Notes under the pieces: generated by a model
What the model saw: the letters and a program-made list of their open reading frames with translations, nothing else
Told to the model about the DNA's origin: nothing
The model's database searches: none
Part shown: positions 3,630-45,049 of the stretch, in pieces
How the letters are laid out: every line of letters begins with the position of its first letter
Position numbering within the stretch: position 1 is the first letter of the stretch
Source of the DNA: Folioceros fuciformis
Lineage: Eukaryota
Assembly: GCA_049999805.1 (NCBI GenBank)
Contig: JBNGIO010006345.1
Location: forward strand, 174,093 to 238,092
Reading direction: 5' to 3'
DNA length: 64,000 nt
Translations under genes and position numbers: made by a program

Positions 3630-4915
3630 AATGAGAGGGAGCTGGAAGATTTGCTGAGGGACTTCGTTTGCGGTTTACGAGGACTTCCAATGGAGGAATT
3701 GCCTGTACGACGATATCTTGTGGATCGCAAAGTTTGTCCCGTCTCATCACTCTTGGGCTGAAGTATCAGGTGGCTGAAGAGCCTATTGTGCCAAGTCCTG
3801 GTCACCTGGAAGAGCACATTGGGAGTAAGGAATACCGCATTTTGGACATTCTGTCCAGTCCTGGGCACAGGGTTGTGGCACTTGTGTTCTGCAAACAGGT
3901 TGCAGAGAAAATACATGCATCAAGAGTGTTTGGCGGGGATGACCCCTTTGTGGTTGCTGGTGTGGAGCCGGGTGGATTGAAGCTTTCCTGTTGTGAGAGG
4001 GGACGGGAGTGGCGAACCATGGACACGGCAAGTCCGTGGGTAGATTTTACTCTGTCTCGTGACATCTTGGCTGGTTTGACGCAGTAGGGACACAGCAGTG
4101 TGAGCTTTCTGAACTGGCAGGCTTTCTGAAACTCATCAGGGGTCTGCAAGACAGAATGGATGGCGGAGCCACAGATTCCGATCAAGGTCAGAGCAAAGGT
4201 GCGGTAATGGTTACAGATGAGGTGGCAGTGAGCAAGGCAACGACTGCGGTTTGTGGGGAATGAAAGTTAGAAATGTTTGAGTCATTCGCCTACAGGTGGC
4301 GTAAGCTCTGATGGTGTTGGGTCAAGGGTGCCGGCCCTCTCAAGTGCTGTGCATCAGCAGCAAGGTGGTCATGCATCCACCAGTGGGATCATGGAGATAG
4401 ATTCAGCTATGGGGATGAGTGTGGGAATGAGGTTCCTTTGCTTCCAGATGGGATCGGAGAGGACTTGTGTATTGTTGCTGTGGAAAATTCTGGCGACATG
4501 GTCTCAAGATGGGAGCGGGATAAGCTAGAGGCTGCAGGGGTGGTAAAGCATGCACTGCACTGCACTGCACTGGTGAATCTGGGCGGGTACCCCTGGCTCT
4601 TATCCAGCTACAGGCGCTCTACGCAAAGGAAGATGTCCAGTCCAGCCAGAAACAGTCAAGAGTCGCAGGAAATTGGACGAGGCATTGTCTATCAGAGGAT
4701 GTGTGAAGGGAAGACTGAAGCGGCAATCGCAGCACTCTCTGGTCTTGGGGAGGATGTTGAGGTTTCTCTTCATGAGCTGGCGCTGGGACTAGTAGGCGTG
4801 ATCTCCGCAAGAAAAGCTAGTGCCGAACTGCAAAAACATGGCTGGCTTGGAGCAGATGAGAGAGAGTAACTGGAAACGTTCACGACCTAGAGGGTGTGTA
4901 TCCTGTGTGTATCTG
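3630..4915 (+). pseudogene. Inverted, internally deleted partial copy of the neighbouring spatacsin gene
   Basis: ~3630-4090 matches the reverse complement of ~23125-22665, and ~4096-4915 matches ~21200-20405 (e.g. ITLGLKYQVAEEPIVPSP, VAVENSGDMVSRWERDKL). Contains stops and frameshifts. Confidence 0.93.
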
Positions 4916-5708
4916 CTTTTGGAGTGAAAAGTTGTTGAATCAAGTGATGAAGACAGACCACAAGCAGATCAAGCATATCAGATCAAAGCATACATTACAG
5001 GTGGGGCTGATGCCATGCTGTTCAGCCGTACAACCAAGGAGCTGGCGGCCTTTATCCTCCAGTCCCTCTCAGTCAGTGCAGCTGCCTGCCCTTGCGTAAA
5101 GCACCAGTACTTGCACACCTTAACAAGGCCCGCGCGCGCATGCCTGTTCGTGCTGTCGAAAACCTAACACTAGGTGTCTAAGCAGTGCTATGCTATGCTA
5201 TCTGGCTAAGCTCTTAACTGTTCCTTGCTATCGTTACATCTCCGCTCTTTCGTCTAGGTTATAACCTAAAACTTGGAAGCACTGGTCCCCTAGTCGTCGT
5301 CGTCGTTGTTGTAAAATGATGTTTAAAATGATGCAGAAGTCTATTGTTATGTATGGAGCTTGACTCCTTGGCCGTGCTCTCATATGATCAAGCTTCCATC
5401 ATGTTTTTTATTCTGTAGTGTTTTTCTGTGGGATGTGTTTTTTATCTTTTTTTACTTATATAATCCGTAAATATAAAATAAGAAACAAGATAGAGGGTGG
5501 TTTTTCTTCCATCTAAATCATAATTAAGTTTAATACATATTAGACCCATGGAATGGGTAACATAATGTTGGAAGAAGCTTGCCCGGGCTATGTCAACCTT
5601 GGTAACATATAAGGAGTCTTTATCAACATAAAATCTTTATCAACATAAAAATACAAGTAACTATCGTACTATATTTTTTTCCACACAGTAAGATGTTTCT
5701 TATTAAAT

Positions 5709-5893
5709 TGTGCTGAAATGAAATGTCGGGACTATTGTCAACGTCGATAATGTGCTGAAATGAAATGCCGGGACTATTATCAACGCCGATANNNNNNNNN
5801 NCGATAATGTGCTGAAATGAAATGCCGGGACTATTATCAACGCCGATAATGTGCTGAAATGAAATGCCGGAACTATTGTCAACGTCGATAATG
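5709..5893. repeat. 42-bp minisatellite (at least 4 copies) spanning an assembly gap
   Basis: Unit cgataatgtgctgaaatgaaatgccgggactattatcaacgc repeated head-to-tail; Ns at 5792-5801. Confidence 0.9.
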
Positions 5894-7539
5894 CATTCTA
5901 TCCACCCTACAAGGTGGCAAGAGTAGACAACATGACATACTTGGTTCATGTTGATTTGATATATCACTGTGACTCCCAAGAAATCATCATGCTCATACTT
6001 CACCTCCCAAGAAATCATCATGCTCATACTTCACCTCTTCGATCGGACATGATCTTTCAAAGAGGGATAAGATTGGCAAGGAAGGCAACTCCACACATAC
6101 TCTTTTTGTCAAATCCACTATGGCTAAACATTACCCTTGTATGTCGAATAATATAATTGGCAACCATAAATGGTTCTTATTGTACATGTAACCAAAAGTT
6201 AGGTCATCAGGGAATGGTATAGAATTGCCCAACATAGGTCTGTATCAACTAGTAACAAAATTCAAATCGAATCGGAGCAAGTAATCGAGCTTGAACACAC
6301 TATTATGAGAACATATAGGCCACATAAGGCATTCGCCTTTTGTGGCAAGTATAGTAAACACACACCTATCTTTGAAGGAGGAGTCAGCCAATAATTGTCT
6401 CCAATGCTTCCAAGCGCATCTTGCACCCCACCAATTTGGGATTGCTAATCATGTAAGTGTGAATCTACTGCCCTCAGCATCTAGGCAGTCCTCGAGTTAC
6501 ATCGTCACTGGGCAGCTTTGCAGGTTGATATCACCCCCTCGTAGGGACTTCGAGTCTTGGTTGTTTCTATGGGACCTTCTTATTTTGTTCATAGGTTTGT
6601 GGATGAAGATTTAGCTCTTACCATGGACCTCTCACAAATCGGTGATACTTAGATTGCTTTTGGTATTCTTTCTTCGTGTTTTGCGCAATGAGCAGGTTAC
6701 CTCGCTAAAACTATTGCACCTTCTCCAATTTTCTTATCAAGTCTCATGAAGTTTGACAATCAAGTTATGTAGGCTCTTGGGGGCATCATAGGTCTTGGCA
6801 CCTTCGAGTGTGCCATTAGTGATTTGGCTCTGAAGCATGCTTCCATGCTAGTTGCCTTTGGAGGGGTTGGCCTTTTGGCCATGGAGAACTCTTCCCCAAC
6901 TGCCTTTCTCGATAGCTAGTTCCTCTCGGCTCCCGTTTTGGCCTCTCATTTTTTGCTGCAAGATTTCTCTCTTCTTCAAGGTTTTATCTCAAGCATTGAG
7001 TAGGGTGTTTTCTCTATACTGGTATCCCTTAGGCAAGCAAGGGATTCTTTACCTTTCAAGGCTCGTGATTCTCTACCTCCCTTCACCTCCTTTACTAGGG
7101 AAGGGTTGAGGGGTCTTCAGGCCTCCCTCCTAGAAAAGCAATATGACCAAGCATTAAGACCCCTTCTTGCGACTCATCCATCCCTAGGTCTTCTTGGGCT
7201 TGTATTCACTCTTGTTCAGGTAAGGGGCGAGCTCTTAACTTTTGGCTTGACCTTGCATCCAGGCGTTTCGAATCGCACCAGCAACTTTTGCCACAATGAG
7301 ATTTCGCTTAGGCTTGGCCACCCCTTGGCTTTTTCTCTCTCTACATGCAGTTGTGGGGTTGCCATTGTTGATACAGGGTCCCATTTGGTACATTGACTCG
7401 TTTTGGGGCACCGCATTGCCACCCATGATGCAGTTCGAGATGTCATGTTCTCGATGGCTAAGGAGTGTGGGTTTCTTTTGTATAGGGAGCGTCCATATAC
7501 TTTGCGCAACAAGGTTTGACTTAGAGCCGACTTAGAATG

Positions 7540-9680
7540 AAACCCCATCTCAAAAATCTTTCGGTGCCCCCATGAAATGAAGCAATTCAATCTTAATTTG
7601 ATGCCCTATGTAGCCCTGATGGTGACAAGTGGCGTATATCAGTAGAGGATGAGTATCAATCCTTTATCAAGAACAATACTTGGAAGTTAGTGGATTTGTC
7701 ACCTGGCAGGAAACCCATCTCATGCAAGTGGGTTTTCAAGCACAAGCTCAACTCAAAAGGAGAGATAGCACATTATAAATCTCGACTCGTTGCTAGGGGA
7801 TTCACGCAGGTTGAAGGCCTAGATTATCAAGAGACATTCAGTCCTGTGGTTAGATCTCAATCTATTAGGATGTTACTTGCTATGGCAACAAAACATGATT
7901 TGTATTTGCATCAAATGGATGTTTGCACAGCGTATATATACGGCAAGCTTGAGGAGGAACTTTATATGCAACAAATGGATGTTTGCACAGCGTATATATA
8001 CGGCAAGCTTGAGGAGGAACTTTATATGCAACAAATGGATGTTTGCACAGCGTATTTGTACGACAAGCTTGAGGAGGAACTTTATATGCAACAAATGGAT
8101 GTTTGCATAGCGTATATATACGGCAAGCTTGAGGAGGAACTTTATATGCAACAAATGGATGTTTGCACAACGTATTTGTACGACAAGCTTGAGGAGGAAC
8201 TTTATATGCAACAACTTGAGGGGTATGTTGATTCTAAATACCCCAACAAAGTTTTAAAACTTCTCAAGTGTATTTATGGTCTTAAGCAATCTGGTAGAGT
8301 ATGGTACTTTACCATGCATGTTTATTTATTGAAAATTAACTTTGTACAAAGTATTGCTGATTCCAATATATGTATGCTTACCCAAGGCTCCTCATACGTC
8401 ATTTTGGCTTTATATGTTGATGACGTAATATTAGCCACAAATGACAAGACCCTATTAGAACATGCCAAGCAGCTTTTATCTAACAAATTTGAAATGAAGG
8501 ATATTGGTGACTTGAAGTTTTGTTTAGGGATCCAGTTGGTGAGGGCTAATGCGGTGATGGCCATACATCAAAACAAGTACATCAAGGAAATTTTGACTAA
8601 GTTTCATATGGATGAGGCACGACTAGCCACTACTCCAGCTGCTATGGGTGTGAAGCTCACTAGTCTTCAATGTGCGCAAACCCCAAAGGAGCAGTTGGAT
8701 ATGCAAGATGTTCCATATAGACACGTAGTCGGAAGTCTCATTTTTGTGGTGAATTGGACCCGACCTGATATTCAGTATGCTGTAAGCATAGTGTCGCAGT
8801 TTCTTGAACATTCGGGCAGGGCTCATTGGGTTGCCGTTAAGTGTATTTTTAGATACTTAAAAGGCACTTTGACACATGGGCTCATATATAAGCTTAGTGG
8901 CAAGGCTAAACTCACTCTACAAGGTTTTATAGATGCCGAGTGGGTGTCTGATGCTAACTCCCGTCGCTGCCTCTCCACATATTGCTTTCTCCTTGCAGGA
9001 GCTGCCATCAATTGGAGTTGCAAGAAACAGCCCTCTATATCTTTGTCTTCAATGGAGGCAGAGTATAAATCTCTCACTGAAGCCACCAAGGAGGCTGAAT
9101 GGGAGAGGAGGTTTTTACAAGATTTGGGGTAGACACAACAAGACCCTGCCCCCATGCTTTGTGACAACATGTCAGCACTTGCTTTGGTTGCCAACCCTCG
9201 CTTCCACGCGCGCACCAAGCATGTAAAGATATCCCTTCACTACATCAGGGATGTTATGGATAGAGGGGTAGCAAAGGTTAGCTTTGTTGGAACAGGTGAT
9301 AATGTGGCCGACATTCTAACCAAAGCACTTTCAAAGCCAAATCACTATAAGCATATGGATGGCTTAGAGCTGGGTGATTACTCAGTATATGTGAATGGCA
9401 CATAATACATAGGAGAACAGATAACTCAGTGGATGAAGCTACATGCAGACAACCAGTCGTGAGTTATTTATCTTCAAGTTGTTTGTTTATGAGTTTTTCT
9501 TCAAATTCAGAGCTGTTGCAACTACGTCGCTGGCACATGTGTTTTCTAGCACAGAGTGGGGGACGCCCCATGCATGGAGAATCATTGGCCACTGGTGGAC
9601 TATTGGTGTTGTTTTGTTTTGTGGAGATTGCTAGTGCCCATGGAAAAAGGGTTTCAAGAGAAACCCGATTCTCCCCATAC
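7540..9680 (+). mobile_element. 5'-truncated Ty1/copia LTR retrotransposon (RT + RNase H), defective
   Basis: ORF 7690-9132 has CKWVFKHK, YKSRLVARGFTQVEGLDYQETFSPV, QMDV, IYGLKQSGRVW, LYVDD and TRPDIQYAVS. After an in-frame TAG it continues CDNMSA..FHARTKHV..ADILTKAL to 9405. No gag, protease or integrase seen; outer boundaries approximate. Confidence 0.92.
7912..8211 (+). repeat. Five tandem 60-bp units inside the copia RT, in frame (20 aa)
   Basis: caaatggatgtttgcacagcgtatatatacggcaagcttgaggaggaactttatatgcaa x5 with variants. Confidence 0.97.
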
Positions 9681-9825
9681 GCTGTTATTTGTGTCATTGA
9701 TGTGGTTATTACAAATCCTACTAGAAATTGATTTACGAGCACGTCATCATCAACCCTCTTGGATGGTCAATCAAGGGCTATGACTAAGAGCCTAAGTCTA
9801 TGAGTATTTTCCCTTACAAGACATA

Positions 9826-9968
9826 CATACTTTCATCCCTCTTGCTCTTGAGACTCGTGGGCTATAGGCAAGGACTTTTCAAGGTTCATCAAGACAGATA
9901 TACTTTCATCCCTCTTGCTCTTGAGACTCATGGGCTACTATAAGCAAGGACTTTTCAAGCTTCATCAA
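9826..9968. repeat. ~70-bp tandem duplication within the non-LTR endonuclease region
   Basis: atactttcatccctcttgctcttgagactc..gggcta..gcaaggacttttcaag..ttcatcaag occurs twice. Confidence 0.85.
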
Positions 9969-10255
9969 GGAGTGTGCCAAGATTTATTAGAGTAATAGGA
10001 ATGGTATTTTCCCTCTTTCTCGCGTGGTGGCCTTCTTTTAACAATGCATGTCCATTGCTTTGCAAAAAGAATTGGGATGAAGCAGCTTCTTCAGCATCGG
10101 TGGTAAGTAGGCCTTGTGTTATTTCACATCAGAACATTTTGGGAATAATAAATAATTTTTCAAAATGATATTCAAAGCGATAGTAACTTTTAACCTTAGC
10201 TATGCTTGGGTGTCCTTTGAATCTTTGGAGTAGGTGGGACTTTCCATCTCTTTTT

Positions 10256-10404
10256 CAATAATAAAAAATACTATACATAGGCTTAGGCTTCGAATTATTA
10301 GACCATAAGGTGCCTCACACTCGTAGGTCTCAATAGTAAAAAATACTATACGTAGGCTTAAGGCTTCGAATTATTAGACCATAAGCTGCCCTCACACTCG
10401 TAAG
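10256..10404. repeat. ~75-bp tandem duplication
   Basis: caata(a/g)taaaaaatactatac..taggctt..aggcttcgaattattagaccataag..cctcacactcgta occurs twice. Confidence 0.85.
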
Positions 10405-11132
10405 TCGTAACCTCAGCGACGTGCTGGCCCGTGCTCTCTCCCAGCCGGTCTCCTCTGTGTCTCCCGTCCTCGAGTCTGAGCTCGCGAAGTCAGTCCTACT
10501 ATGTTTGAAACCGACTTTGGGCGCAGGGTTCAGGAGAAGCGGGGCGGAGAGGTTCCCGATGTGCCGACCGGCTTTAAGTCTTTCTACTGGCCGCAGTTGG
10601 CAATGGTTGGGATGCAAGGCACTTTTCCTTTCAGTCTGGCATACACACCAAGATTCCACCATGGACGATGACCTGAAATCCGTAGTCATCAGCGCGATCG
10701 TGTTTGGAGGATACGAGGGAAGAAATTCCGACAGACATAGAGCTAAAGGTCGAATGTGTTCGTCACCAGTCGAATAGACTAGAGGTGTGCCTCGGCAGAC
10801 GTTGTGTGGTAGCGCGCTAAAGGGCCATGCTTGTCAACGAGCGGTGGGACCATTTAGTCTGAGCCAAGATTCAGACAACTTGCTTCCACCTGAACATCGT
10901 CTGCACAAGGGCAGTACGAAAACGAAACCTTATTCTCCGGCAAATCAGATCAACAAGCCCATTGATCTAGGATGCCCACAGGCAACGCCTGCGCACCCTC
11001 AGAGTTCTACAGGGCAAAGAATTGGGTACTGGGAAAGAAGCTTTTGGTGGGGCTCCTTCTCAGGGTTATTGAAATATGTTGGCCATTATGCACAGCTGCT
11101 TTGCCTCGCAGCTCCGGACTGACTTACAAGCG

Positions 11133-14625: not shown

Positions 14626-17600
14626 CTACATGATCGGCAAGTAAGCTCCTCCGTGGCCTCTTTTCAAAAGGAGAGGCCCAGCATTCTCAGGGACTTTATC
14701 CAGCAACCGCGAACAAGTATCAACCACATCTGAAAACCCAGTTGCCATGATAGCCAGCTGTATTCTCAGTCTGATGTCAGGAACGCGATTGAGGAGTAAC
14801 CTAAAACTTTTTGCCAGCGAGGTTTTCAGCTGGACATCTGCTGGCGTAATCCATTTAGAGAAATCAATCTGGTCACCCCGAGCAGCCAGTTCAGCCCTGT
14901 AGAATCTGGTGAGCTCCAACAGCGTGTCTTTGGGTAGAGGCAGGGTCGCCACAAAGTCACTCAGAAAATGATCGAAGCGGGCCGGATAGAGCAGCATGTG
15001 GTTCCAAATCACCGGAACCCATTCGGCCGGTTGATTCAACCCATAAGCCTCTGCAACAATCAATGCCTCCTGAAACCGTGGCTGTTCCACCATTAGACGG
15101 CGTGCATTGGTGTCTGATAAGTTGAGCCAAAGGTGCTCTGGCATAAGCAACTGCAAGGATATCAGGGAGGCTTGAGCGCAGCATTTCTTTGCTTTAATAC
15201 CGGCCTCCACGGCTGCATAAAGCTGACCAGCTTCTGCGAATAACCTCATAACCTCTAAAAGGTCTTCACTTCGTTCTAGATCATTCTGGGCGACCCAGAC
15301 CTCAAGTCCTTTCCGAGCCCTTGCCTGCTTAAGGTTTGCCAGATCATGTTTCATAGAGAAATGGATATACACCTGCTCAAGTGCGTCTAGATCATGAGGA
15401 TTGAAGTGCTTGAGGGCAGAAAGGAGAGCGAGGCAGAAACCCGGGGTACCCGATGATGATTCAAGGCCAGCCTCACTATATGTGCGGAGGAGGAGGTTCA
15501 GCTGTCCATGCTCTATCAGCAGATCCAGAATAAAACGCCATCTACGGAAGTCTGCAATGCCTGTTAACAGCCGAGCCAAACAGATGAAAGCTCCCTCTGC
15601 AACGTAGATTTTCACACGTTCAGATGCCAAGGCCACCAGAATAACCATTCCATCTAAACAATCTGAGGCTTCATAGAAGTGATGAGTCAGTATCAGCAGC
15701 TCCACTTCACAAGCAAGTGGGATTGCTTGTTCTGACGAAACCAGCCGCATGAGTGCATGTCCAACCTCCGGCTCAGAGGGACAAAGCTTTGCCCACTTCG
15801 TAAAATCGGACGTCCTCCATAGCAATGGTGCTGGGCCCTCTTCCTTCTGAGAACCGTTCAGATATCCACCACGATGAGCAGCAACTAAACCCTTCAAAAA
15901 AGATTCTGCCAGAATCTGTGCAATGCTGGGAGCTTCCATTAAATGCGTTGTAACCAAGAGTTCTGCCTCCGCAAGGGCATCTTGCCCTCTCAAAGCAAGC
16001 AGTTGAAGCAATTGTGACGACTCCATTTCAAACGCTTCTGAGAAAGGTAGTCCTAGAACATTAGCTATGTGGGAAACTGCTCCAATCCTTCTGCAGAACC
16101 CCTGCCCACATCCTTGTCGACATGCTGCAGTCAAGGCTTCCAAGGTATCTGGCTTTGACAACGAGGCAACATCCTCAACGAGTCCTCCTGAATACAAATG
16201 CTCCACTACGTTGGTTGACAGAAGATTTGCTATCAGAGGTTTGTCTGCAAGGGCAATATTCCAAGCAGCCTCCACAAGACCAAGTTCTATTGGACTCTGA
16301 CCTATCGACAGAGATTGCTGCAGCTGCTTCGCAGCAGACAAATGACCTGCCTCCAGGAGGTCTAACATCGCTTTTTTGGCACTAGTTGCATCAACTTGCG
16401 CCTTCCAGCCACCAAATGCTTCGTCCAGCTGTGTGCCACTAAATAAATACAGACCAGCTATATCCCGCTCCGTTACTTTGGCCTTGGACGACCTGCTTTC
16501 ATCCGATGCGTTTAATGCCTTGTCATCCAGATGCGCGCGTCTACCCATGTTATGCCCAGGGATCCGTCGTTGCTTCCCTTTACTATGCACCTCAGGTGCG
16601 CCCTTGACTTCAGGGGTATTTCCGGTGGTTGAAAATGGCGGTCTTCTAGCCTGCAGATTTGCTTTGGAGATCACATCTTGTGACTTCTCGAAATGATCTG
16701 AGATGCGCTGAGTGCCATTGGATGGTACCACTTCATTCATCTCCCTTACAACACCTGCACTCTTTTCAGACTCCGCCTCTACTGCCAACATCCACACTCG
16801 TGTCTCGAGCTCACCTAAAAAGTCAGATGGAAAATTACCTTGTGGATCACTGAGCCACTGATACGCAAAGAGTACAAGCTGATGCAGTTCAGATGAGGGA
16901 ATCTTTGAGTCTAAATCATTCGCGTGCTTGAGGAAGAACAAGCCAGCCCGTTGAGGAGGAAAGCAATATTTTGTAAACAATGCATGACAGTGACCCCATA
17001 AAGCAGCTCGTTCCTCAGGAAAGTCCCACAGCAATTCCTTCCAGTCTGTAACCATGGCTTCAGCTTGAGTGTCAGTTACATGATGAAGAGCTGCTCCCGT
17101 GCTGGGCTGACCATCTTTGAGATCCAGCTGACGGGCCCAGCTGCGAGCATCCTCCCACCGCCCTTCTTTTGCCAAAGCCATGAGAAGTTCATCGTCTTCC
17201 AAACTGGTTCCACCTGCCAACGACTGATTCCTGTCCTGCAGGGCTGGCTCTGCCAGTTGCATCTTCCAATACAAACGCCTAAACCGAATAGCAGCTGGAC
17301 CTCCATCTCCAAAGTCTACTGTTGATAAAGGCTGAAGTAAGCGATGACGTTCATACGGGGAAGGACATGCATCAAGCATTGCATCTGCAGCAGATATTGC
17401 AGCTCCTGTTATCCAGGTGGAAGACGACCTGGACTTCTGCAGCTCTTCTTTGAGACGTGTTGAGAATGAAGACAGATGGGCAGAAGCTTCTGCTAGTCGC
17501 ATCTGAGAGAAAGCCTGCAGAAATCTGATGAAAGGCAGGAGAGATGAGCTTGGCGAGAATAGCTCAAAGCCCTTCAAGAGAGGGAAGAACTCCTGCCGTT

Positions 17601-20600
17601 CACAGAACGATGCCACCTTTTTTGCAAGAGATTCGTGATCTACCAGTAACTCGTTCATGGGCAGTTTATCTACAGCTGCTGAGTACTGGATGTCCTGCCC
17701 TATGTCCCCACCACGCTCGGTAGACTCCTGCGTTTCAGGTGTTGCATATGCTGAAATAGTTTTCTGTCGTTTCATTGCTCTCTTCATCCAATCTGAAAGA
17801 CACTCATCCTTCTCACCAGCATGTGCTTCACAAGAAGCAGGCACATCAGGGAGGCCAGATTCTTCCACCGGGGCAATCACACCTAGCCATACATCAAAAC
17901 ACAAAAGGGGATCCACATCATCATAACAGGAGGCAACCACAGGCAAAAGAGGCCATTTCAAAACTCTAGCCTTCTGCAGAAGAGCAAGAGATGGCTTTCC
18001 AGACTTTTCACAAGCTGCTACCAGTGTGAACAACTCTTCCTGGGACCCAGTCTCTTCTGTAATGAAAGAGTCTGCAGCTGATGGCAAAGTTGATGGCAAG
18101 CTTTTCAGTACAATCAAGATATGACTTCTCAGCCTTGTGTCGTTAAAGTCAGCTGCCACTATAGGAATAAGCTTCTCAAGAGGACAAGCTTGAATTTGAG
18201 CTTCAGACAGAAAGTCAACCCAATCATTATCTCGTGCAAGAGCCCTGAGATACGCATAGCTTAAGGGGATCTGATGAGCATGACAAAATGCTGTAACGGT
18301 AGCCCACTGTTCACTGAACGAACGTCCAGAGCCTGCTGTACGCTCATCTTCTTGCTGAGGGTAGCTGACCTTTGACCGGCTGTAATCATGAAGGATGGCC
18401 TTCTCAAGCAACTCTGATATGGCAATGCTGGCTTTTCTGTAGCGATGAGTACCTGCTTTTCCAACCAGGAGTTGCAGATTGTCTGTGTTCATAACTTCTG
18501 ATACATAGTCCTCTACCAGTGTCAGCATATGAGACACAGCAGAGGTGAAGCCAGCCTCCAAGAGCTCCTGGCTGAGTTGCTCAGTGTTGTATGCCTTCTC
18601 AAGGAACTCAGATATCCTTCTCAGTGATAAAACAACAATGCGAACCATACTTGCCGGGACACCACATAGCTCAAGAAAACAAATACAAGCTGTAACAACT
18701 CTTACATTAGCATATTCACGAACTGCCAGCACTACAGCCAACGAAACGACTTTCCGTTCACTGATTGTAAGGGCTGAAAGGACAGCTGAAGGGTCTAGCT
18801 TCTGGTAGTGATCATTCTTCAGCCGTGAGTCCAGGAGATACTGAAAAGCTGCGACACCTCTCCCTCTTCGTAGAAAAAACACCACCTTGGGTTCAGAATC
18901 CTCAGGGTGTCCTACATTCAACTCCCTTTCAATCGACGCCTGGATTAAAGCCTCCCATTTCTCAGGCCCTTCCTCTAGCTCCTGCAGACTATCTACAGAG
19001 TCCTCAAGCTTCAGAAGCCCTTCACCATCAGGCTCTGTTGAGAGCTGGACTAGACGCCTGACACTCTTCGGTGTCCACTGAGGCATCATTCCCAATATAG
19101 ACAGATCATTTCTTGCACATGAGAAAAGACCTTTCCGCCATGACAGATACTCTGCCAAATTTGTAGCACGCTCTCCAGCGTCTAAGGATAGATCTGCCAC
19201 AGGGGAATCACTTGAACAGGCAACCAAATGCTTCCATAAAGTCGGAAACTCTGTTACCCTCTTTCTTGACGGACTGGGCGACAAACTAAACGAATTTGTT
19301 GACAGGCCACTCCACATATAAGTTTTCAAAGGCACAGGTGTATACACAAGATTTGCGTACGCCAGCTTTTCCCCTGCAACTTCGCATAAGTGATCAAAGC
19401 TGCGGAAGGTGTGTTCAACATCCTCAACTCGCGTGCACTTGAAATCACTGGAACCTGAGGCAACCATAAACTTTGCATTCTCCACAGAAGCATCATACTC
19501 ACATCCTTCCATGTAGGATAGGAGAAGCCATGACGCCCAATGACAACCATCCGCAATTGCAAGCATTCTGCTTGCAAACTCCTTATCGCTATTTAACGCA
19601 GCCTGATCAACGTGAAGCGACAGAGTATGTGGCAAAGAGTTCTCAACGCAGTGAAGGACCATCAATTGCTGCACGGCTTTGACAGTGCTCTCATTCAAAT
19701 CAACCTCTTTGAGAGGCCTCGGAGAACTGGAGGTAGACGAAGACTCATCAGCAGTCCCTGTTTCACCACAATGAGAGAATAATCTATCACCCCGTGCTAG
19801 TAAAGCAACCACCTCCGTAGTACCTTTCCATCTTGTTTGAAAAAAAATTCCTTTCCTCAACAGCTTGTCCTCCAGCATCTGCCTCATCCAGATTGTAAGC
19901 AGCCAATCTGAACTGATAGACAAGATCTGTACGTCAGGTATGACAACTTCCACCGACTCAAAATTTAAGTTTGAACTCACGTACAGCTGACCCAGGTGGA
20001 GCGCAGCTGAGGGAATCTCATCAAGAAGGGAGGAAACCTCAGACCAATTGTGACGAGCAATATGGTAGTCCACCTTAGTTTCCCATGGGGTAGAATACCC
20101 TATGATGCCAGGCTGGTCTAGGAGAACCCGATCAAACGTCACCTTGTCCCAGGGGTAAAGCCAGATAGCTGCAGCAGAAAAATAACCGGCAAAAGGATTA
20201 TCCTGAATCACAGATGCACCCGGGGAATCTTGTGCATTGCCAGAAACATTCCATGAGCCAATAACAACTCCATCAACTTCCCCACACTCGATGACTTCAC
20301 CATCGACAGACAGTTGTGGTCTGTCTATATCATTTGATTCAACAACTTTCCCTATACTTGCAAGATACTTTCGTCGTGTGTTGTAAGCACTCCAAAAGCT
20401 ACTCCCAGGATACACACCCTCTAGGTGGTGAACTTTATCCAGTAACTCTCTCTCATCTGCTCCAAGCCAGCCATGTTTTTGCAGTTCAGCACTAGCTATT
20501 CTGCGGAGATCACGCCTAGTGGTCCCCAGCGCCAGCTCATGAAGAGAAACCTCAACATCCTCCCCAAGAGCAGAGAGTGCTGCGATTGCTGATTCAGTCT

Positions 20601-23600
20601 TCCCTTCACACATCCACTGATAGACAATGCCTCGCCCAATTTCCTGCAACTCTTGAAAAAGGTCCTCTGTTTCTGGCTGGACATCTTCCTTTGCGTATAG
20701 CGCCTGCAGCTGGACAAGAGCCAGGGGCACCCGCCCAGATTGCAGTGCATCCTTTACCACCCCTGCAGCATCTAGCTTATCGCGCTCCCATCTTGAGACC
20801 ATGTCGCCAGAATTTTCCACAGCAACAATACGCAAGTCCTCTCTGATGCCATCTGGAAGCAAAGGAACCTCATCCCCACACTGCCCCATACCTGAATCTA
20901 ACTCCAGGATCCCACTGGTGGACGCATGACCACCTAGCTGCTGATGCACAGCACTCGAGAGGGCCGGCACACTTAACCCAACACCATCAGAGCTTATTCC
21001 ACCTGTAGGCGAATGACTCAAAATTTCTAGCTTTCTTTCCCCACCAACCACAGTCGTCGCCTTGCTCACTGGCACCTCATCTGTAACCACCACCGCACCT
21101 TTGCTATGACCTTGATCAGAATCTGTGACTCGGCTATCCACTCTGTCTTGCAGACCCCTGATGAGTTCCAGAAAGCCTGCCAGTTCAGAAAGCTCACTTG
21201 AAACCAGCTGGTCTTCAGGTAGTGCAATTTTGACAGAATTTTGCTTCCGGTTGCGCTGATGTAGCCCCAACCAGCCTTGCTGTTGAATCAAGCTTGTAGC
21301 AAAGGAAGCTGCCATTGCAAGAAACCTAGATGAACGAGCCAGTTCCTTGTCACCTTGCAACCCATTGATCATGAGCTCAACAGCCGCAAAGAGCGTGTGC
21401 AGCACGCCAGGCTTTGACACACTGTCGTGCATCAAGGTTTCCAGTGCCTGCTCTACCTCATCGATTTGGATGAAGCTCAACCCAAGCTCCAGCCGTCTCA
21501 ATCTCAAAAGTGACAAGTTCCACCCGTTCTGCACACAAAGTTGCTCAGTTTCAGTCAGCTTATCATAAATGAGTGCTCTGTCCAAAACTTCCGCTTGCCA
21601 TTTTTGCAAAGCTCCAGGGATGTTCTCCTGCTTTACGCACGTGTCATGATCCAACAGGTCCTCAAACTTGGCACCAGTAGGCCACCATTGCCCAGTGACA
21701 TGTGGTCTTGTAAGTATAGATTCACCTGAACGCAATGCCAGTGAAGGAAGCACAACATGGAGACCAATGGGAGTCACGAAGTATAGGGACCCGCAGAAGG
21801 AGAAAGGTAACACTGTACTACTGCATCTCTTCTTCTTCTTCCCTCTACAATGCAGCATAGCAGAAGCTGATGGGTGTGCAAGGTTAATATCATCCATGAC
21901 GCCATTGGAGAGATCCAGCTCAATGCAGACTATCTCCATGCACCCCGTAGAAGATAACGCGACCACAACATCATAAGGAGTAAGCACCATCTCCTTGAGA
22001 TCCTGTATACTTCTATAAGAGCACAACACCACCTCTCGTCGTCTTCTCCTTACTTCCCTTGCTGATATGTCATTGAGATAATCTCCGCGCTTACTGCTTT
22101 CGTTTTGCAGGCTGACAGCATCTATTGCGGCATTCTTAGCATTATCTGGGTCATGAAGCCACTGATGGTACTTTGTAGTTGTGCAACGCCCGATGTCAAT
22201 GCCTGCTACACCCCACGTCGCCATGGTATGTGTACCACAGGGTATGTCAGAGACAGCCAGTCTTTGACTCGCCCCTGGTAAGACAACGGATAAACCCTCG
22301 TCCAGGGAGACAATGAACACAACGCCCAAAACGTCACCAGCAGCCAGCATCCTACTGTCAGGAGTTAATGCGAGGCGAGTGAAGTGGTGTACAGCATTGG
22401 ACTCATGCCGTTCCGTGAATGGATCAAGATCCTGGTGGCGTCGATTTTGTCCTACTCGAGTTCTTGACAGTCCTTCTGCTCCCTCCATCCACGAATGCCG
22501 TTTGGAGAAACCACTCCAAACAAGCTCCTTCGCCTCATGGTTCCTTGCAATCCCACTCGGATTGCTCGATCCACCTTGGATCTGCGGTGGTACACTTTGT
22601 TTAGTAACATCAATAGAAGACAAAAACTTTCCACTGCCTGCAGTCCAGAGAAAAATCTGTCCCTCCTGTGTCAAACCTGCCAAGATGTCACGAGACAGAG
22701 TAAAATCTACCCACGGACTTGCAGGGTCCATGGTTCGCCACTCGGGTCTCCTCTCACAACAGGAAAGCTTCAATCCACCCGGCTCCACAGCAGCAAGAAC
22801 CACAAAGGGGTCATTCCCGGCAAACACTCTTGATGCATGTATTTTCTCTGCAACCTGTTTGCCAAAGACAAGTGCCACAACCCTGTGCCCAGGACTGGAC
22901 AGAATATCCAAAATGCCGTATTCCTCACTCCCAATGTGCTCTTCCACGTGACGAGGACTTGGCACAATAGGCTCTTCAGCCACCTGATACTTCAGCCCGA
23001 GAGTGATGAGACGGCAAAAACTGTGTGACGGACGAGATATCGTCGTAGTGGCAATTCCTCCCGAGGAAGTCCTCGTAAACCGCAAACCAAGTCCCTCAGC
23101 CAAATCTTCCAGCTCCGCCTCATCGCAAGCAGCATGAAAGCCTTCCCCCTCTCGGAAACTGGCTTTACTGAGCCCACCCTCACCGGCAAGGGGCACACTG
23201 CCTTGCTCGTCATACGCCGAGCTCGAATCCTCCCCTGGCAATTCCTCGGCGTGTCCAACCTGTACATCTGCACGAAGCTGCGCACCTTCTGCAGCCTGGG
23301 AACGGCAACCATCCCATCCCACGATACGCAGGCCATCATCCCCCGCCGCGAAGAGAAACTGCTCAGATCGCGAATCCCCTTCGCATTGCGCCCATGCCAG
23401 ACACTTGACATTTCGTAGCACAGGAAGGTGTGCATTCGGAATCAAGCCCTCGGATCCGGTCCTTAGGGGGAGAACAACCACATTCCCCTCGCGGGACAGC
23501 AGCAAAAGCGTGTCTTGAGATGGAGAGAGAGCAGCAGCACAAAAGTCCGCGAGATAAGACAGTCGCTCAGACCAAGCCTGCAACAAAAGGGAGGGGACCT

Positions 23601-23616
23601 CGTCATCCTCATCCAT
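14626..23616 (-). CDS. SPG11: Spatacsin (SPG11)-like protein, ~2996 aa, single uninterrupted coding exon
   Basis: Open frame from the first ATG (MDEDDEVP, ccATGG context) to TAG. Plant spatacsin C-terminus AQILAESFLKGLVAAHRGGY..EEGPAPLLWR..EQPRFQEALIVAEAYGLNQP..VPENAGPLLLKRGHGGAYLPIM. The ORF track starts at an upstream GTG (23745). Confidence 0.92.
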   Translation of the reverse strand: MDEDDEVPSLLLQAWSERLSYLADFCAAALSPSQDTLLLLSREGNVVVLPLRTGSEGLIPNAHLPVLRNVKCLAWAQCEGDSRSEQFLFAAGDDGLRIVGWDGCRSQAAEGAQLRADVQVGHAEELPGEDSSSAYDEQGSVPLAGEGGLSKASFREGEGFHAACDEAELEDLAEGLGLRFTRTSSGGIATTTISRPSHSFCRLITLGLKYQVAEEPIVPSPRHVEEHIGSEEYGILDILSSPGHRVVALVFGKQVAEKIHASRVFAGNDPFVVLAAVEPGGLKLSCCERRPEWRTMDPASPWVDFTLSRDILAGLTQEGQIFLWTAGSGKFLSSIDVTKQSVPPQIQGGSSNPSGIARNHEAKELVWSGFSKRHSWMEGAEGLSRTRVGQNRRHQDLDPFTERHESNAVHHFTRLALTPDSRMLAAGDVLGVVFIVSLDEGLSVVLPGASQRLAVSDIPCGTHTMATWGVAGIDIGRCTTTKYHQWLHDPDNAKNAAIDAVSLQNESSKRGDYLNDISAREVRRRRREVVLCSYRSIQDLKEMVLTPYDVVVALSSTGCMEIVCIELDLSNGVMDDINLAHPSASAMLHCRGKKKKRCSSTVLPFSFCGSLYFVTPIGLHVVLPSLALRSGESILTRPHVTGQWWPTGAKFEDLLDHDTCVKQENIPGALQKWQAEVLDRALIYDKLTETEQLCVQNGWNLSLLRLRRLELGLSFIQIDEVEQALETLMHDSVSKPGVLHTLFAAVELMINGLQGDKELARSSRFLAMAASFATSLIQQQGWLGLHQRNRKQNSVKIALPEDQLVSSELSELAGFLELIRGLQDRVDSRVTDSDQGHSKGAVVVTDEVPVSKATTVVGGERKLEILSHSPTGGISSDGVGLSVPALSSAVHQQLGGHASTSGILELDSGMGQCGDEVPLLPDGIREDLRIVAVENSGDMVSRWERDKLDAAGVVKDALQSGRVPLALVQLQALYAKEDVQPETEDLFQELQEIGRGIVYQWMCEGKTESAIAALSALGEDVEVSLHELALGTTRRDLRRIASAELQKHGWLGADERELLDKVHHLEGVYPGSSFWSAYNTRRKYLASIGKVVESNDIDRPQLSVDGEVIECGEVDGVVIGSWNVSGNAQDSPGASVIQDNPFAGYFSAAAIWLYPWDKVTFDRVLLDQPGIIGYSTPWETKVDYHIARHNWSEVSSLLDEIPSAALHLGQLYVSSNLNFESVEVVIPDVQILSISSDWLLTIWMRQMLEDKLLRKGIFFQTRWKGTTEVVALLARGDRLFSHCGETGTADESSSTSSSPRPLKEVDLNESTVKAVQQLMVLHCVENSLPHTLSLHVDQAALNSDKEFASRMLAIADGCHWASWLLLSYMEGCEYDASVENAKFMVASGSSDFKCTRVEDVEHTFRSFDHLCEVAGEKLAYANLVYTPVPLKTYMWSGLSTNSFSLSPSPSRKRVTEFPTLWKHLVACSSDSPVADLSLDAGERATNLAEYLSWRKGLFSCARNDLSILGMMPQWTPKSVRRLVQLSTEPDGEGLLKLEDSVDSLQELEEGPEKWEALIQASIERELNVGHPEDSEPKVVFFLRRGRGVAAFQYLLDSRLKNDHYQKLDPSAVLSALTISERKVVSLAVVLAVREYANVRVVTACICFLELCGVPASMVRIVVLSLRRISEFLEKAYNTEQLSQELLEAGFTSAVSHMLTLVEDYVSEVMNTDNLQLLVGKAGTHRYRKASIAISELLEKAILHDYSRSKVSYPQQEDERTAGSGRSFSEQWATVTAFCHAHQIPLSYAYLRALARDNDWVDFLSEAQIQACPLEKLIPIVAADFNDTRLRSHILIVLKSLPSTLPSAADSFITEETGSQEELFTLVAACEKSGKPSLALLQKARVLKWPLLPVVASCYDDVDPLLCFDVWLGVIAPVEESGLPDVPASCEAHAGEKDECLSDWMKRAMKRQKTISAYATPETQESTERGGDIGQDIQYSAAVDKLPMNELLVDHESLAKKVASFCERQEFFPLLKGFELFSPSSSLLPFIRFLQAFSQMRLAEASAHLSSFSTRLKEELQKSRSSSTWITGAAISAADAMLDACPSPYERHRLLQPLSTVDFGDGGPAAIRFRRLYWKMQLAEPALQDRNQSLAGGTSLEDDELLMALAKEGRWEDARSWARQLDLKDGQPSTGAALHHVTDTQAEAMVTDWKELLWDFPEERAALWGHCHALFTKYCFPPQRAGLFFLKHANDLDSKIPSSELHQLVLFAYQWLSDPQGNFPSDFLGELETRVWMLAVEAESEKSAGVVREMNEVVPSNGTQRISDHFEKSQDVISKANLQARRPPFSTTGNTPEVKGAPEVHSKGKQRRIPGHNMGRRAHLDDKALNASDESRSSKAKVTERDIAGLYLFSGTQLDEAFGGWKAQVDATSAKKAMLDLLEAGHLSAAKQLQQSLSIGQSPIELGLVEAAWNIALADKPLIANLLSTNVVEHLYSGGLVEDVASLSKPDTLEALTAACRQGCGQGFCRRIGAVSHIANVLGLPFSEAFEMESSQLLQLLALRGQDALAEAELLVTTHLMEAPSIAQILAESFLKGLVAAHRGGYLNGSQKEEGPAPLLWRTSDFTKWAKLCPSEPEVGHALMRLVSSEQAIPLACEVELLILTHHFYEASDCLDGMVILVALASERVKIYVAEGAFICLARLLTGIADFRRWRFILDLLIEHGQLNLLLRTYSEAGLESSSGTPGFCLALLSALKHFNPHDLDALEQVYIHFSMKHDLANLKQARARKGLEVWVAQNDLERSEDLLEVMRLFAEAGQLYAAVEAGIKAKKCCAQASLISLQLLMPEHLWLNLSDTNARRLMVEQPRFQEALIVAEAYGLNQPAEWVPVIWNHMLLYPARFDHFLSDFVATLPLPKDTLLELTRFYRAELAARGDQIDFSKWITPADVQLKTSLAKSFRLLLNRVPDIRLRIQLAIMATGFSDVVDTCSRLLDKVPENAGPLLLKRGHGGAYLPIM

Positions 23617-25325
23617 GGAGGTCGTCAGTGCGTACGCACCGGTTGGCACAGACGATGAGCCGGAAAGACGAGGACTACGAGTTGGCTGTAGGCGAGCGAG
23701 GGAAGCCCCCTCCGCAGACGGGGCATACGGAAGTAAACGTGTCACGTGGTTGTGCGTCCAGCCACTTGGCTACCAATGCCGTCTCATCGGCTCATCATCT
23801 CCGCACTGTGCTGCAAAGTTACATGCTTTAGCGGTGCAATAACACGATATCGTCCTTCCTTCACAAGAACCCGTGATCTTCACACCACATTCTTCCTCCT
23901 TCAGCGGCACCAGATAAAAATGCTGCAGTACAAGTCGGTCAGTGCTGATACATTCGTGGTGCGATCTCCATAGGCCGACTGATGCCTTCAAGAGATCTCT
24001 TCTGGCCTCAACAGGGGCCGCATCTGCGGCAAGTGCTGGCGCGATGGCAGCAATACAGGAGGCGGAGGATGCGGCTCAGCGCCGCATAAACGCGGATACG
24101 ACCATGATGCCAGCGAAGGAAGTAGAACGGCTTGGGCTCTGGCGTCGGAAACACAAGCCTGGCGTCACTCTGCACCAGATGACCACGGCTACTCACAGGC
24201 AAGATCATTGCTTGCCGATTGCCTGACTGGCACATGTTCTTAACTGTGCTACTGCTTTTGCTGCTGCAATCATGCAGACTGTTTGTATTACTGAGCTTAA
24301 TGGATTGCAAGGCACCTCCTCCTCCGATTGGATTTGTGTAGCAAAACAATTCGTGATGCTCTGCTGTGTGTGTTGAAAGCTTCACGATGTAGGGGGGAGT
24401 GGTGTGTGTTTGATCTTGTCCTGCTGCGTTAAAAAATTGTGAGGCAGTGAAGTCTTGACGATGCTGCACAATCAACGAACAAGGCTTGAGCCAGCTTCCT
24501 TTGGATTTAGGTGACTCATGTATGATCCTGTGGCCTGTGATGCGCGCTGCTTTGCAGCTTTGTTGTGTTAGCTCTGCATGAGGAGGAAGTGTGGTGTGCT
24601 ATCTGTGCGCGATAAATAATCTCACGCCTCTGATGCGTTGCTGCTATACCCCTACTCTTGGTTGGTGTAAGGCAGAGAATTGAAGGTGCTCTACCCGCTT
24701 CTGGCTATGGTGGTCCTAGCCTTCGGGCTCGCAGGTATGACGGCGTATGGGGAGCTGGTGGTGGATCCTACGGTGCAGGTGGACAAGCGCAGAACAATCA
24801 ATTAACAGGTGAAATTGAAATGGCGCAGGAAGTGGTGGCCATGTCGCACGCCAAAGCCGACAGCCCCCTTCAACGTTTGGCCAAGCCAAACCCCTTGGCC
24901 CACAGTCAGCAGGAGCCACTGGTGCTCCCCGGCGAGGACAAGGCTGCTCTTGGGCAGCCCGGCAGCACACATAAGTATGGCCAGCCAATTGGTGGTGGCT
25001 TTTGAAAGAACTGCCATGATCTTACCATGTAGTCATGCACATGGGCAGCTCACAGGGGAGTCTCTTTCCCGCATGTTTAACTGCGCCGCGCAACCGGCCA
25101 TGGTGGGAATGCCCTTTCGCTTGCAACGTGAGATAGAGAAGCCTATCAACCTGGTGGGGTGGTTGATGGGAGGCTTCACGAGCGTGTACAGTAGCCAAAG
25201 ATGCATTGAGAGCGAGGCAAATCCTAAACCAGATTCCTAAACCACCCAGTTTAGGATAAAGTCATCACCAGGAGGCATGCATTGGTAATGTGCGAGATAA
25301 TTGAGTTTATATAGTTTTATTGAGT

Positions 25326-32968: not shown

Positions 32969-33459
32969 GCATGTCTGCTAAGCCAGCAGTTTTGACTAGA
33001 ACATAATTTTGTCCTGTCCGGGTACCCCATAACCTTTATGTGGGAACGATTCTATCCCATTTGATCTTTCAAAGGTTGTATGACAGGCCTTTGGCTTTCA
33101 TGAGAGGCAGCTGAATGGCTGGTGTTTGGTTTTCGCCAACTTGGATTGTCTTGTTCACCAACTCAAGTCCTTATGAGAAGCGGAACGTGTGAACCCCAAG
33201 CCTGACTGTCCTAACACTTCCCAGGTCTTTTTGTCTCTCTATCGGGTCCCCAGGTGTATCGTGAATTCAATCGTTCTGAACCAGCGTTTCTTACGGGTCT
33301 TCTTGCGTTTGAGCCGTTGACGGACAAAGGCTTTCGTGCCAAAGCTATGACCTTGAACCCTAAACCCTATCTGATTGGTGCCTTCGCGCGCCAGTGACAA
33401 AGTGCTGCCCCTGATAGGGGTATGGAGGGGGGACACAGCACAACGGTGAGGAGGGCGGC

Positions 33460-35250
33460 ATGGGAAAGAATCCAATTCTTCCTTCCTTGTCTTTGTTCCG
33501 TTTGAGGCAACAGGTGGGAAATGTGATCAAGGTGCTGTTGACACCAGGACGGTCCTACTCACAATCTGCGGATGTGTCAAGTAGGCCCCTTTCGTTTCCA
33601 GATGTTACCGGCAACGGCAGCGGCAGCGGCAGCAGACAAGTTGCTCGCCCTGGTCGACAGTGGATGGGGAGCTGGGAGCTTGACTCAAGCTCGTCGCCAC
33701 GCCCCGGAAGGATGGAGGACAGGTTGAGGATGAATTCCTCGGAGGAGCCGTGGGTTAGGTCACACCGGGGGTATTATGGTAGGCATTTCATTTACTGCAA
33801 GAAGAATCCAAGCATGATTCAGAGCGTGTTCCCAAAAGAGAACTGGCAGAACCTATGCTGGTCGAATTGCACGAAAAGCGGTCTGGATCATGCGGACAGG
33901 ATTCTTGATGATCCGTTCTGGACCCCTGATGCTCACGATGAGAGGGTGCAGGCCAAGCTGCGCAGGGTTCTTGAGGAGATTTATGACCCAGAATTTCTGG
34001 AGTGCTCGCACGGGTTTCGTCCAGGCTTCTCTCAGCTCACTTGTTTGAGGCAGGTGAGACGTGATTATCAAGGCACTGTGTGGTTTATCGCGGTGGAGCT
34101 GTCAAAGCACCTCTCCACATTAAGGTATCCGGTGGTGCTGGGGCTGATCAAGCGAAAAATTCGCGATTCCCAGTTCCTTTCCTTGGTTGACAGAGGGTTG
34201 AAAGGGGAGATGCTGATCACCAGCGTTAAGGCAGGGGCTTCTGCGGAGTTGATGAGGAGCTGTGCTCCTATTCTGACAAACATAGTGCTGCATGAGCTGG
34301 ACAAGTTTTGCATGCGTTTAAAGCGCATTATAGATAGAGGGAAGCTGATTGATGGCAGAATACTGTCATGGAAGACGGTGGATGCAGCAACCACGGCTCC
34401 CTTTCCTGGTTTGCCATCTGATGGGAATGAGACTAAGCTGACCAAGTTTGGACCTGCCAAGGTACTTCAGGATTCTTACTCCCGGCGGTTTCATTATGTA
34501 CGTTTCGGGAATGAGGTTCTGTGCGGGGTAGTAGGCCCGCATGCCCTTGCTGACCGTTTGGTTGCACTTTTGATCCGATTTCTCAAAGTACGCCTTCACC
34601 TTGATCTAACTGAGGATGATTTTGAAATCACCCGGGCTAAGGGAGAGAAGATTCCTTTCCTTGGGTATCTTATTGGCAGAAATCCTGACTTTGCTGAGAA
34701 GTTGGTCCACGTTGAGGATGGGAAGAAAAGGGTCGACAAGGTGTTGAAGCCGGGTAAATTGACTCTCATTGTTGACAAAGATAAAGTTGTTCGCAGATTG
34801 GCCGAGAAAGGCTTTTGCACCAAAGGGGGTGAACCGAGGCCCAACTTTCGGTATTTCCAGATGGCACAGAGTGAGTCTGTTTCTAAGATTGGGGCAATAC
34901 TGAAGGGACTTGCTGAGTATTATCACCTGGCAGAATCAAAGAAACGGGCCATTCTCTACTTCAACTGGATCATGCGTTCTTCCCTTGCTAAAACATTTGC
35001 TGCCAAGTTCAAGTTGAGGAGCCAGAGGAAAGTTTACAAACGTGGGACCCGGGACTTATCTAGGCCCATCGCACGGCAGACTGCAAGTAAGAAGAAGAAT
35101 GTCTACATACCGGAGTCTGAGAAACCTCACAATCAGAAAGGTAAAATGCATGGCAGGAGGATGCAAGGCCTACCTTTCACCCGGAGCCGATTGATACCTG
35201 GACCTGACACAAAGCCCATGCCTCGAGACTGGAAACCCGTGGGCAGGTAG
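33460..35250 (+). CDS. Nuclear-encoded group II intron maturase (degenerate RT + domain X, no D/En; nMAT1/2-type), probably organelle-targeted
   Basis: RT blocks VQAKLRRVLEEIYDPEFLECSHGFRPG, APILTNIVLHELDKF, HYVRFGNEVLCGV, IPFLGYLI; domain X VRRLAEKGF..GLAEYYHLA..SLAKTFAAKFKL..KVYK; basic, Ser-rich N-terminus. Confidence 0.88.
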   Translation: MGKNPILPSLSLFRLRQQVGNVIKVLLTPGRSYSQSADVSSRPLSFPDVTGNGSGSGSRQVARPGRQWMGSWELDSSSSPRPGRMEDRLRMNSSEEPWVRSHRGYYGRHFIYCKKNPSMIQSVFPKENWQNLCWSNCTKSGLDHADRILDDPFWTPDAHDERVQAKLRRVLEEIYDPEFLECSHGFRPGFSQLTCLRQVRRDYQGTVWFIAVELSKHLSTLRYPVVLGLIKRKIRDSQFLSLVDRGLKGEMLITSVKAGASAELMRSCAPILTNIVLHELDKFCMRLKRIIDRGKLIDGRILSWKTVDAATTAPFPGLPSDGNETKLTKFGPAKVLQDSYSRRFHYVRFGNEVLCGVVGPHALADRLVALLIRFLKVRLHLDLTEDDFEITRAKGEKIPFLGYLIGRNPDFAEKLVHVEDGKKRVDKVLKPGKLTLIVDKDKVVRRLAEKGFCTKGGEPRPNFRYFQMAQSESVSKIGAILKGLAEYYHLAESKKRAILYFNWIMRSSLAKTFAAKFKLRSQRKVYKRGTRDLSRPIARQTASKKKNVYIPESEKPHNQKGKMHGRRMQGLPFTRSRLIPGPDTKPMPRDWKPVGR

Positions 35251-44762: not shown

Positions 44763-45049
44763 GTTGGATTATATGCCTTATTGGAATATTTTATGATTAG
44801 ACTACGTTTGAAACCTAATTGCCTAACATGAAACTCATATTAGGCAAAACTACTAAGCTTAGGTAGAAACTTATTCTCTTGGGAACAAACATGTCGTAAG
44901 CTATATCAACATGTTTTTCCTTGCTGGGGTTTTGAGTTGCACATAAGCAATTACAAACACAATAAGGGGTTAAGCTATCTCAATGCAAGGTTTGATCCCC
45001 TTCAAGCATCACTCTCCCCCCTAGGGGGGGGGGGGGGGGATATCATTCC

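Follow-up and report, generated by a model that had tools for sequence, protein, structure and literature searches.

Long interspersed nuclear elements (LINEs), the retrotransposons without long terminal repeats (non-LTR), include a group that carries a restriction-like endonuclease (RLE); it is the oldest LINE group and the source of the R2-based gene-insertion tools. R2 elements encode a single protein in which a LINE-type reverse transcriptase (RT), with a thumb ending in GGLG, is followed by a helical linker, a CCHC zinc knuckle and a C-terminal PD-(D/E)xK nuclease whose catalytic lysine lies far downstream. The CRE group (CRE1/2, SLACS, CZAR and relatives) also has the RLE-type architecture, and its classic members target spliced-leader genes. 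Plant L1 and RTE elements are also non-LTR retrotransposons and have a related RT followed by a zinc knuckle, but they carry an N-terminal apurinic/apyrimidinic endonuclease (APE) and lack the C-terminal PD-(D/E)xK domain. To our knowledge, the range of RLE-type LINEs in the plant lineage is poorly documented. Here we describe a relic at 6408-10080 on the + strand of a 64-kb stretch of Folioceros fuciformis DNA (contig JBNGIO010006345.1, positions 174,093 to 238,092; below, the window). The relic is very probably a dead copy of an early-branching, RLE-type non-LTR retrotransposon.

A hidden Markov model (HMM) of the family to which the relic belongs was built from 18 database relatives (826 positions) and run on the six-frame translation of the window. 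In this whole-window search (hmmsearch), 6524-7540 was matched in a single frame over profile positions 352-686 (E 3.1e-42) and the tail at 9904-10080 over positions 742-798 (E 9.6e-4); tblastn with the relatives gave E values down to 3e-24 for the 6524-7540 main block. Scans restricted to the regions beside the main block, whose E values derive from a search space of one, added five short flanking pieces (E 0.073 to 1e-6), which are weak singly and count through colinearity, as all pieces of the relic follow the order of the profile. The fragments in the window share a series of motifs with the single proteins of the relatives, and they are therefore parts of one protein family. Along the + strand, this series comprises QFG (6432-6440), LQVD (6518-6529), GGVGL (6860-6874, with a second similar motif, GGIIGL, at 6779-6796), CSCG (7346-7357) with its histidine (7382-7384), HDAVRD (7424-7441), RADL with the first nuclease aspartate (7523-7534), IDVV with the second nuclease aspartate (9696-9707), FIPLALETRG (9832-9861) and FIPLALETHG (9905-9934), and SIALQ (10051-10065). 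A preliminary description of this DNA had listed these motifs, and all of them are present, in the order given there and on the + strand. Given the HMM match of the main block, the series is, on the evidence of sequence comparison, far beyond chance.

The 5′-most detectable homology is a remnant of the RT N-terminal part ending in HLAPHQFGIA (6408-6446, profile 171-183, E 0.073). It is followed by a second RT remnant with one in-frame stop (6458-6532, profile 188-212, E 0.003 in the restricted scan), which ends in LQVDI at the start of the catalytic-aspartate motif A region and is 44% identical over 25 amino acids to the Riccia fluitans protein P0144. An alternative reading, in which LQVD was the ‘GL.vn..K’ motif that follows YxDD, QFG was a chance match and the copy was merely truncated after YxDD, was overturned, because both the restricted profile scan and the Riccia P0144 match contradict it. 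At the codons VDI (6524-6532) the profile alignments from the two sides overlap; this is the junction of an internal deletion, where the copy jumps from profile position 212 to 352. About 139 profile positions (213-351) were lost there, taking with them the rest of motif A, QGDP, YxDD and the following RT motifs, and the preliminary description had rightly noted that much of the RT core appears deleted. Profile positions 1-170 find no match in any frame of the window, and the copy is therefore 5′-truncated.

The main block (6524-7540) spans the end of the RT and its thumb, the α-helical linker, the CCHC knuckle, HDAVRD and the first nuclease aspartate, and its 7415-7534 part is 60% identical over 40 amino acids to the Marchantia paleacea protein P0010. 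The knuckle (7346-7396) reads CSCG-x8-H-x3 followed by a TGA stop (7394-7396) at the position of the last cysteine; the C, H, D and D residues that do not vary within the family are all kept in the window copy. The nuclease core resumes at 9693-9755 (profile 696-716, E 0.012 in the restricted scan) with VIDVVITNPTRN and the second catalytic aspartate, and the counterpart of this motif is DVVIADPTR in the family member P0008 and DVVVTDPTR in P0010. Further downstream, a 73-nt tandem duplication (9817-9969, 2.1 copies, 90% matches) doubles FIPLALETxG and shifts the frame, with profile positions 734-759 matched twice (9820-9885 and 9881-9949). The C-terminal tail of the open reading frame (ORF) lies at 9898-10080 (profile 740-798, E 1.3e-6 in the restricted scan), contains four in-frame stops and ends with SIALQKELG and a stop.

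The decay of this copy is advanced. Nine of the 339 codons of the main block are in-frame stops, and the tail pieces contain more. The preliminary description had the element hidden across frameshifts, which holds for the flanking pieces, as those at 6408, 6458, 9693, 9820 and 9898 lie in different frames, and for a shifted patch within the main block (7224-7325), but not for the 1-kb main block as such, which is in one frame and is interrupted by its nine stops. The relic is long dead, has no function now and is inert for the neighbouring genes. Among sequencing runs, two DNA runs, both of one study, were listed as carrying the sequence, and no RNA run was.

The protein family was collected with P0001, a read-through translation of 7004-7537 with an X at two TGA stops, as the query against 1.84 billion representative proteins. 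Among its 25 matches at E <= 0.001 was P0002, a long repeat protein hit 14 times by a 22-residue stretch and judged spurious by eye. The remaining matches carry the same motif series, and the long ones reach further, upstream into an RT with YADD and downstream into ‘FIP.A.E..G ... S.ALQR’. Full-length relatives are one protein of about 930-1130 amino acids that comprises, in order, a putative N-terminal Cys/His finger-like region, an RVT_1 RT with its thumb, the helical linker and CCHC knuckle, and the C-terminal PD-(D/E)xK nuclease. RVT_1 is their sole Pfam domain and was found in 11 of the 12 scanned relatives. In some members of the family, PHD, RING or RNase H1-N domains take the place of the finger-like motifs. 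An APE domain (Exo_endo_phos, E <= 0.1) was found in none of the same 12, the window copy itself being 5′-truncated, and precomputed Pfam annotation shows one in just two of the 99 proteins matched by the family alignment, both at the weak end of the list. Pfam run on the relic's own pieces detects nothing real except RVT_2 in the Ty1/copia part described below. A search of the ESM Atlas with the family member P0027 returned only ‘hypothetical protein / RVT_1’ clusters, with no clade name.

In the knuckle of the family, the C, H and C positions vary little or not at all, and the spacing is mostly CX1-2C-X9-10-H-X3-C. The window's form of 1-9-3 is the commonest, being found in 25 of 79 scored relatives; 45 further proteins, many of them fragments, did not match the pattern. 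This differs from the published knuckle of RLE LINEs, CX2-3CX7-8HX4C (PMC5678591).

The closest known counterpart of the family, by profile and by fold, is R2 (R2Bm, R2Tg and turtle R2; PDB entries 8gh6, 8ibw, 9dou, 9nl2 and 9nl3), with which it shares the single protein, the LINE-type RT, the GGLG end of the thumb, the helical linker, the CCHC knuckle and the C-terminal PD-(D/E)xK nuclease with its remote catalytic lysine. A search of the PDB with the family profile placed R2 proteins first (E 7e-36 to 7e-23) over two stretches, namely the RT and the CCHC/RLE region. In the second stretch, C..C..H..C, RH, PDL, DVtv, K..KY and ‘F.P...E..G’ align to the R2 nuclease (i-E 3e-4), whereas LINE-1 ORF2p was matched over the RT only (~1e-21). 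An AlphaFold model of P0008 covering the linker, knuckle, nuclease and tail, computed from a 45-row alignment, had a predicted local distance difference test score (pLDDT) of 91.1. When this model was compared to the PDB with Foldseek, all seven matches at E <= 0.001 were R2 proteins; weaker matches include restriction enzymes, a Holliday-junction resolvase, cap-snatching endonucleases and Prp8. The family is thus one of RLE-type non-LTR retrotransposons, as the preliminary description had proposed for this relic: the relatives are without an APE, the profile and the P0008 fold match R2 over the nuclease region, and the motifs join colinearly on one family profile. Neither of the two outcomes that the preliminary description had named as refuting its reading was observed.

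Nevertheless, the family clearly falls outside R2 proper. For the single member P0027, the match to R2 reaches no better than E ~1e-6 and covers part of the RT, whereas two more distant proteins of the same database, P0154 and P0155, are genuine R2 and match R2Bm at E 1e-88 and E 6e-131, respectively. In an RT tree of 42 rows (38 from the family, the two genuine R2 proteins, and two APE LINEs that are unnamed database proteins), the 38 family rows form one clade on a branch of length 1.0 with a Shimodaira–Hasegawa-like approximate likelihood ratio test (SH-aLRT) support of 98, and the R2 and APE rows fall outside it. Furthermore, the relic lacks the ribosomal DNA (rDNA) context of R2 in the window: a 28S rDNA insertion was looked for, and across the 64 kb no match attains the gathering score of any Rfam family; transfer RNA (tRNA) and small nuclear RNA (snRNA) genes were likewise not found. 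With no Rfam family and no tRNA in the window, nothing there suggests a repeated-gene target.

Several points weigh against the reading of the relic as an RLE-type LINE. The short flanking pieces of the relic each score weakly alone. The window copy is without an RT core, an N-terminus, a defined 3′ end, a poly(A) or a target-site duplication, and therefore both the term non-LTR and the insertion mechanism rest on the relatives and on what is known of R2. Most of these relatives, in turn, are unnamed proteins predicted from metagenomes or run assemblies, and the Cys/His finger-like motifs near the N-termini of P0027, P0029 and P0034 were seen by eye and have no Pfam match. The trees come from quick searches or FastTree and contain many long branches, and the two APE outgroup rows of the RT tree did not form one side of a branch.

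Members of the family with named sources come from Closterium, Klebsormidium, Cymbomonas, Marchantia paleacea and Riccia fluitans, from the red algae Porphyridium and Pyropia, and from Symbiodinium, Diplonema and a tardigrade. Its members from streptophyte algae and liverworts include Klebsormidium nitens GAQ93619.1, proteins of Closterium spp., Marchantia paleacea KAG6550858.1, and Riccia fluitans R1flu_017480 and R1flu_015020. The algal and the unnamed long relatives are ~30-36% identical to the relic over 160-330 amino acids, while the liverwort entries are short fragments, and the database labels of all these are ‘hypothetical’ or ‘reverse transcriptase domain-containing’. The best named match of the relic is the Marchantia paleacea fragment. 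In a FastTree phylogeny of 94 rows that spans the thumb to the nuclease and has many long branches, the window copy falls in a 10-row clade with the Klebsormidium protein (support 97). Judged from these protein comparisons, the lineage is eukaryote-wide, and the branch nearest the relic holds streptophyte-algal sequences and, going by the short named proteins that match it best, liverwort sequences. The preliminary description had set the element against the LINEs of angiosperms, a framing that finds no support in this DNA: the closest named relatives are those just given, the best named matches of a host gene in the window are bryophyte proteins, at only 38-45% identity, and nothing points to an angiosperm. 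The DNA resembles that of a non-seed streptophyte.

The lineage is little described in the plant literature. The relic itself is an ordinary fossil of a familiar type of retrotransposon, of note mainly in that this type is missing from textbook lists of land-plant LINEs. A review of land-plant transposable elements gives only L1 and RTE as LINEs (PMC9033089). In the RepeatMasker table of a liverwort genome paper, ‘CRE/SLACS’ is the largest LINE class with 5,729 elements and 0.82% of the genome, and ‘R2/R4/NeSL’ is zero (PMC12130436). Our literature search found no description of RLE-type LINEs in land plants or streptophyte algae, which is no proof of absence, as most subscription journals and Repbase Reports lay outside it.

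Among the more specific placements of the relic, membership in the CRE clade, with intact copies that would be site-specific, fares best, and we give it a little less than an even chance. The relic's family has the RLE-type architecture without an APE that characterizes the CRE group, a domain order that would, however, fit any RLE clade. A euglenozoan (Diplonema) protein belongs to the same broad family, and the relic's family is the only RLE-type LINE lineage that we met among liverwort proteins, which agrees with the prominence of ‘CRE/SLACS’ in the liverwort table; the tie between that table row and the relic's family is nevertheless one that we infer. As to site specificity, no such context is seen for the relic: the window holds no repeated target gene (rRNA, snRNA or tRNA), and the two relics of the family found in it (see below), both decayed and with undefined ends, share no flank similarity.

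We advance more tentatively, and consider rather less probable than CRE membership, the proposal that the relic represents a streptophyte branch, passed on vertically, of an ancient RLE-LINE lineage that spans the eukaryotes, is distinct from R2 and is marked by a CX1C-X9-H-X3-C knuckle. This branch would have survived from charophyte algae into bryophytes and would still be the main LINE type in some liverworts. Were this so, reviews of land-plant transposable elements that stop at L1 and RTE would have missed a group, and this genome or its relatives would harbour intact copies, perhaps with a specific target. The relic and its liverwort and charophyte relatives may provide the concrete protein family behind the ‘CRE/SLACS’ rows of the liverwort table, and the family profile can be used for finding intact copies.

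That the relic derives instead from an APE-type LINE (L1 or RTE, the types customarily given for land plants), with C-terminal motifs that are merely the ordinary LINE zinc knuckle, is highly improbable. Such an origin would accord with the L1 ORF2p match of the family profile and with the review cited above, which names only L1 and RTE, but it is contradicted on three counts: an APE domain is missing from the relatives, what follows the knuckle resembles the R2 nuclease in both alignment and fold, and the APE LINEs lie outside the family clade of the RT tree. Equally remote is the idea that the motifs are not transposon debris but part of a host gene, or of a domesticated gene derived from a nuclease or an RT. 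The relic does sit in a gene-dense stretch between a USP39-like and a ureide-permease gene, but its main block contains nine stops, its frame is shifted in places, the RT core is deleted, one segment is tandemly duplicated, a 2.1-kb copia piece interrupts the nuclease domain, and a second, differently broken copy lies 34 kb away.

On the reading of 6408-10080 as an RLE-type LINE, and by analogy with R2, the following history can be proposed. The intact R2-like protein would have bound its own RNA and nicked the target DNA with its nuclease, and the freed 3′-OH would then have primed reverse transcription of the element RNA at the target. As in R2, reverse transcription would often have stopped early and left 5′-truncated copies. 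The window copy either arrived in this form or became 5′-truncated, after which the RT core was lost through an internal deletion. Stops and frameshifts built up, the 73-nt tandem duplication was gained, and the nuclease domain was split by a 2.1-kb fragment derived from Ty1/copia.

This fragment (7546-9659, + strand, ~2.1 kb) consists only of an RT and an RNaseH-like tail. Its homology to copia begins at ~7541-7597, at the start of the RT; Pfam RVT_2 covers 7597-9129 (E 3.5e-78), and the copia frame runs from 7597 to 9405 with one stop (9130-9132) and is followed by a non-coding tail of ~255 nt. Within the RT, a 60-nt in-frame tandem repeat (7903-8214, 5.2 copies, 94% matches) multiplies a 20-residue segment around the first catalytic aspartate of the copia RT (MQQMDVCTAYIYGKLEEELY). 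Neither long terminal repeats (LTRs) nor GAG, protease or integrase were found in the piece, no long direct repeats flank it, and the window contains no second copy of it and no LTR-like repeat. It is a fragment of Ty1/copia and not a complete element. The stretch 7540-9680, which the preliminary description had named for excision, is this fragment. It sits between the two catalytic-aspartate motifs (RADL and IDVV) of the LINE nuclease. In the Marchantia paleacea relative only 10 residues separate the corresponding motifs, so that hardly any of the LINE is missing at the insert.

The copia piece lies between the two copies of a 7-nt direct repeat, GAAACCC, on the + strand (7539-7545 on the left, 9660-9666 on the right). 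As a target-site duplication of the copia piece it is suggestive only, since a shared 7-mer arises in 153 of 5000 random pairs of 30-nt windows (~3%). The repeat exceeds the usual 5-bp target duplication of copia elements and would fit the insertion of a 5′-truncated cDNA. Two routes of arrival were weighed: (a) the insertion of a whole element followed by deletions of the region from the 5′ LTR to the integrase and of the 3′ LTR end, and (b) the pasting in of a 5′-truncated RNA or cDNA, via LINE-type priming or capture at a DNA break. The matter is evenly poised, and we lean slightly towards route (b). Only the 3′ part of copia is present (RT, RNaseH-like tail and 255-nt trailer), its junctions with the LINE are sharp, the LINE reading being back within a few codons, and the flanking repeat is longer than the copia duplication. 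Against route (b), no poly(A) was found at the 3′ junction of the copia piece, and the 7-mer has the chance frequency given above.

The window contains a second, smaller relic of the same LINE family at 44221-44650 on the + strand (hmmsearch E 3.5e-9 and 2.3e-3), and the whole-window profile scan matched this locus over 44221-44555. It retains the linker and knuckle (profile 579-660) and then the tail (739-772 and, weakly, 784-802), with the nuclease core deleted. At the DNA level the two relics are 71-78% identical, over short stretches only, and no similarity was found between their flanks. A 54-nt fragment at 45039-45092 (+ strand), ~83% identical to 6527-6580 (DI.PS.GL.VLG.P.G), is loose debris of the family; its similarity starts exactly at 6527, inside the deletion junction of the first relic. 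Two weak profile matches, at 42908-43057 (E 0.31) and, on the minus strand, at 45068-45145 (E 0.9), were treated as noise.

Just upstream of the first relic, 4007-4963 (+) is an inverted partial copy of part of a spatacsin-like gene (20314-22743, −). The copy, a gene-fragment duplication, is 89-94% identical to its parent in three pieces, and between the first and second of these it omits ~1.46 kb of the parent sequence. The parent gene (14626-23769) is a 3047-amino-acid single ORF with a Pfam Spatacsin_C domain. Tandem repeats occur on both sides of the first relic: 42-nt units at 5709-5893, flanking a 10-N gap (5792-5801), a perfect 31-nt repeat of 2.1 copies at 5973-6037, and a 75-nt repeat of 2.0 copies at 10255-10406, directly downstream of the relic's tail. 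No link of these three repeats to the element was established. Elsewhere in the window, an intact ORF of 610 amino acids at 33418-35250 (+) encodes a group II intron maturase domain (Pfam Intron_maturas2) and is probably a nuclear maturase gene. Among named proteins it is most similar to one from Sphagnum (45%) and to liverwort mitochondrial maturases (38-40%), and its best unnamed match reaches 65%.

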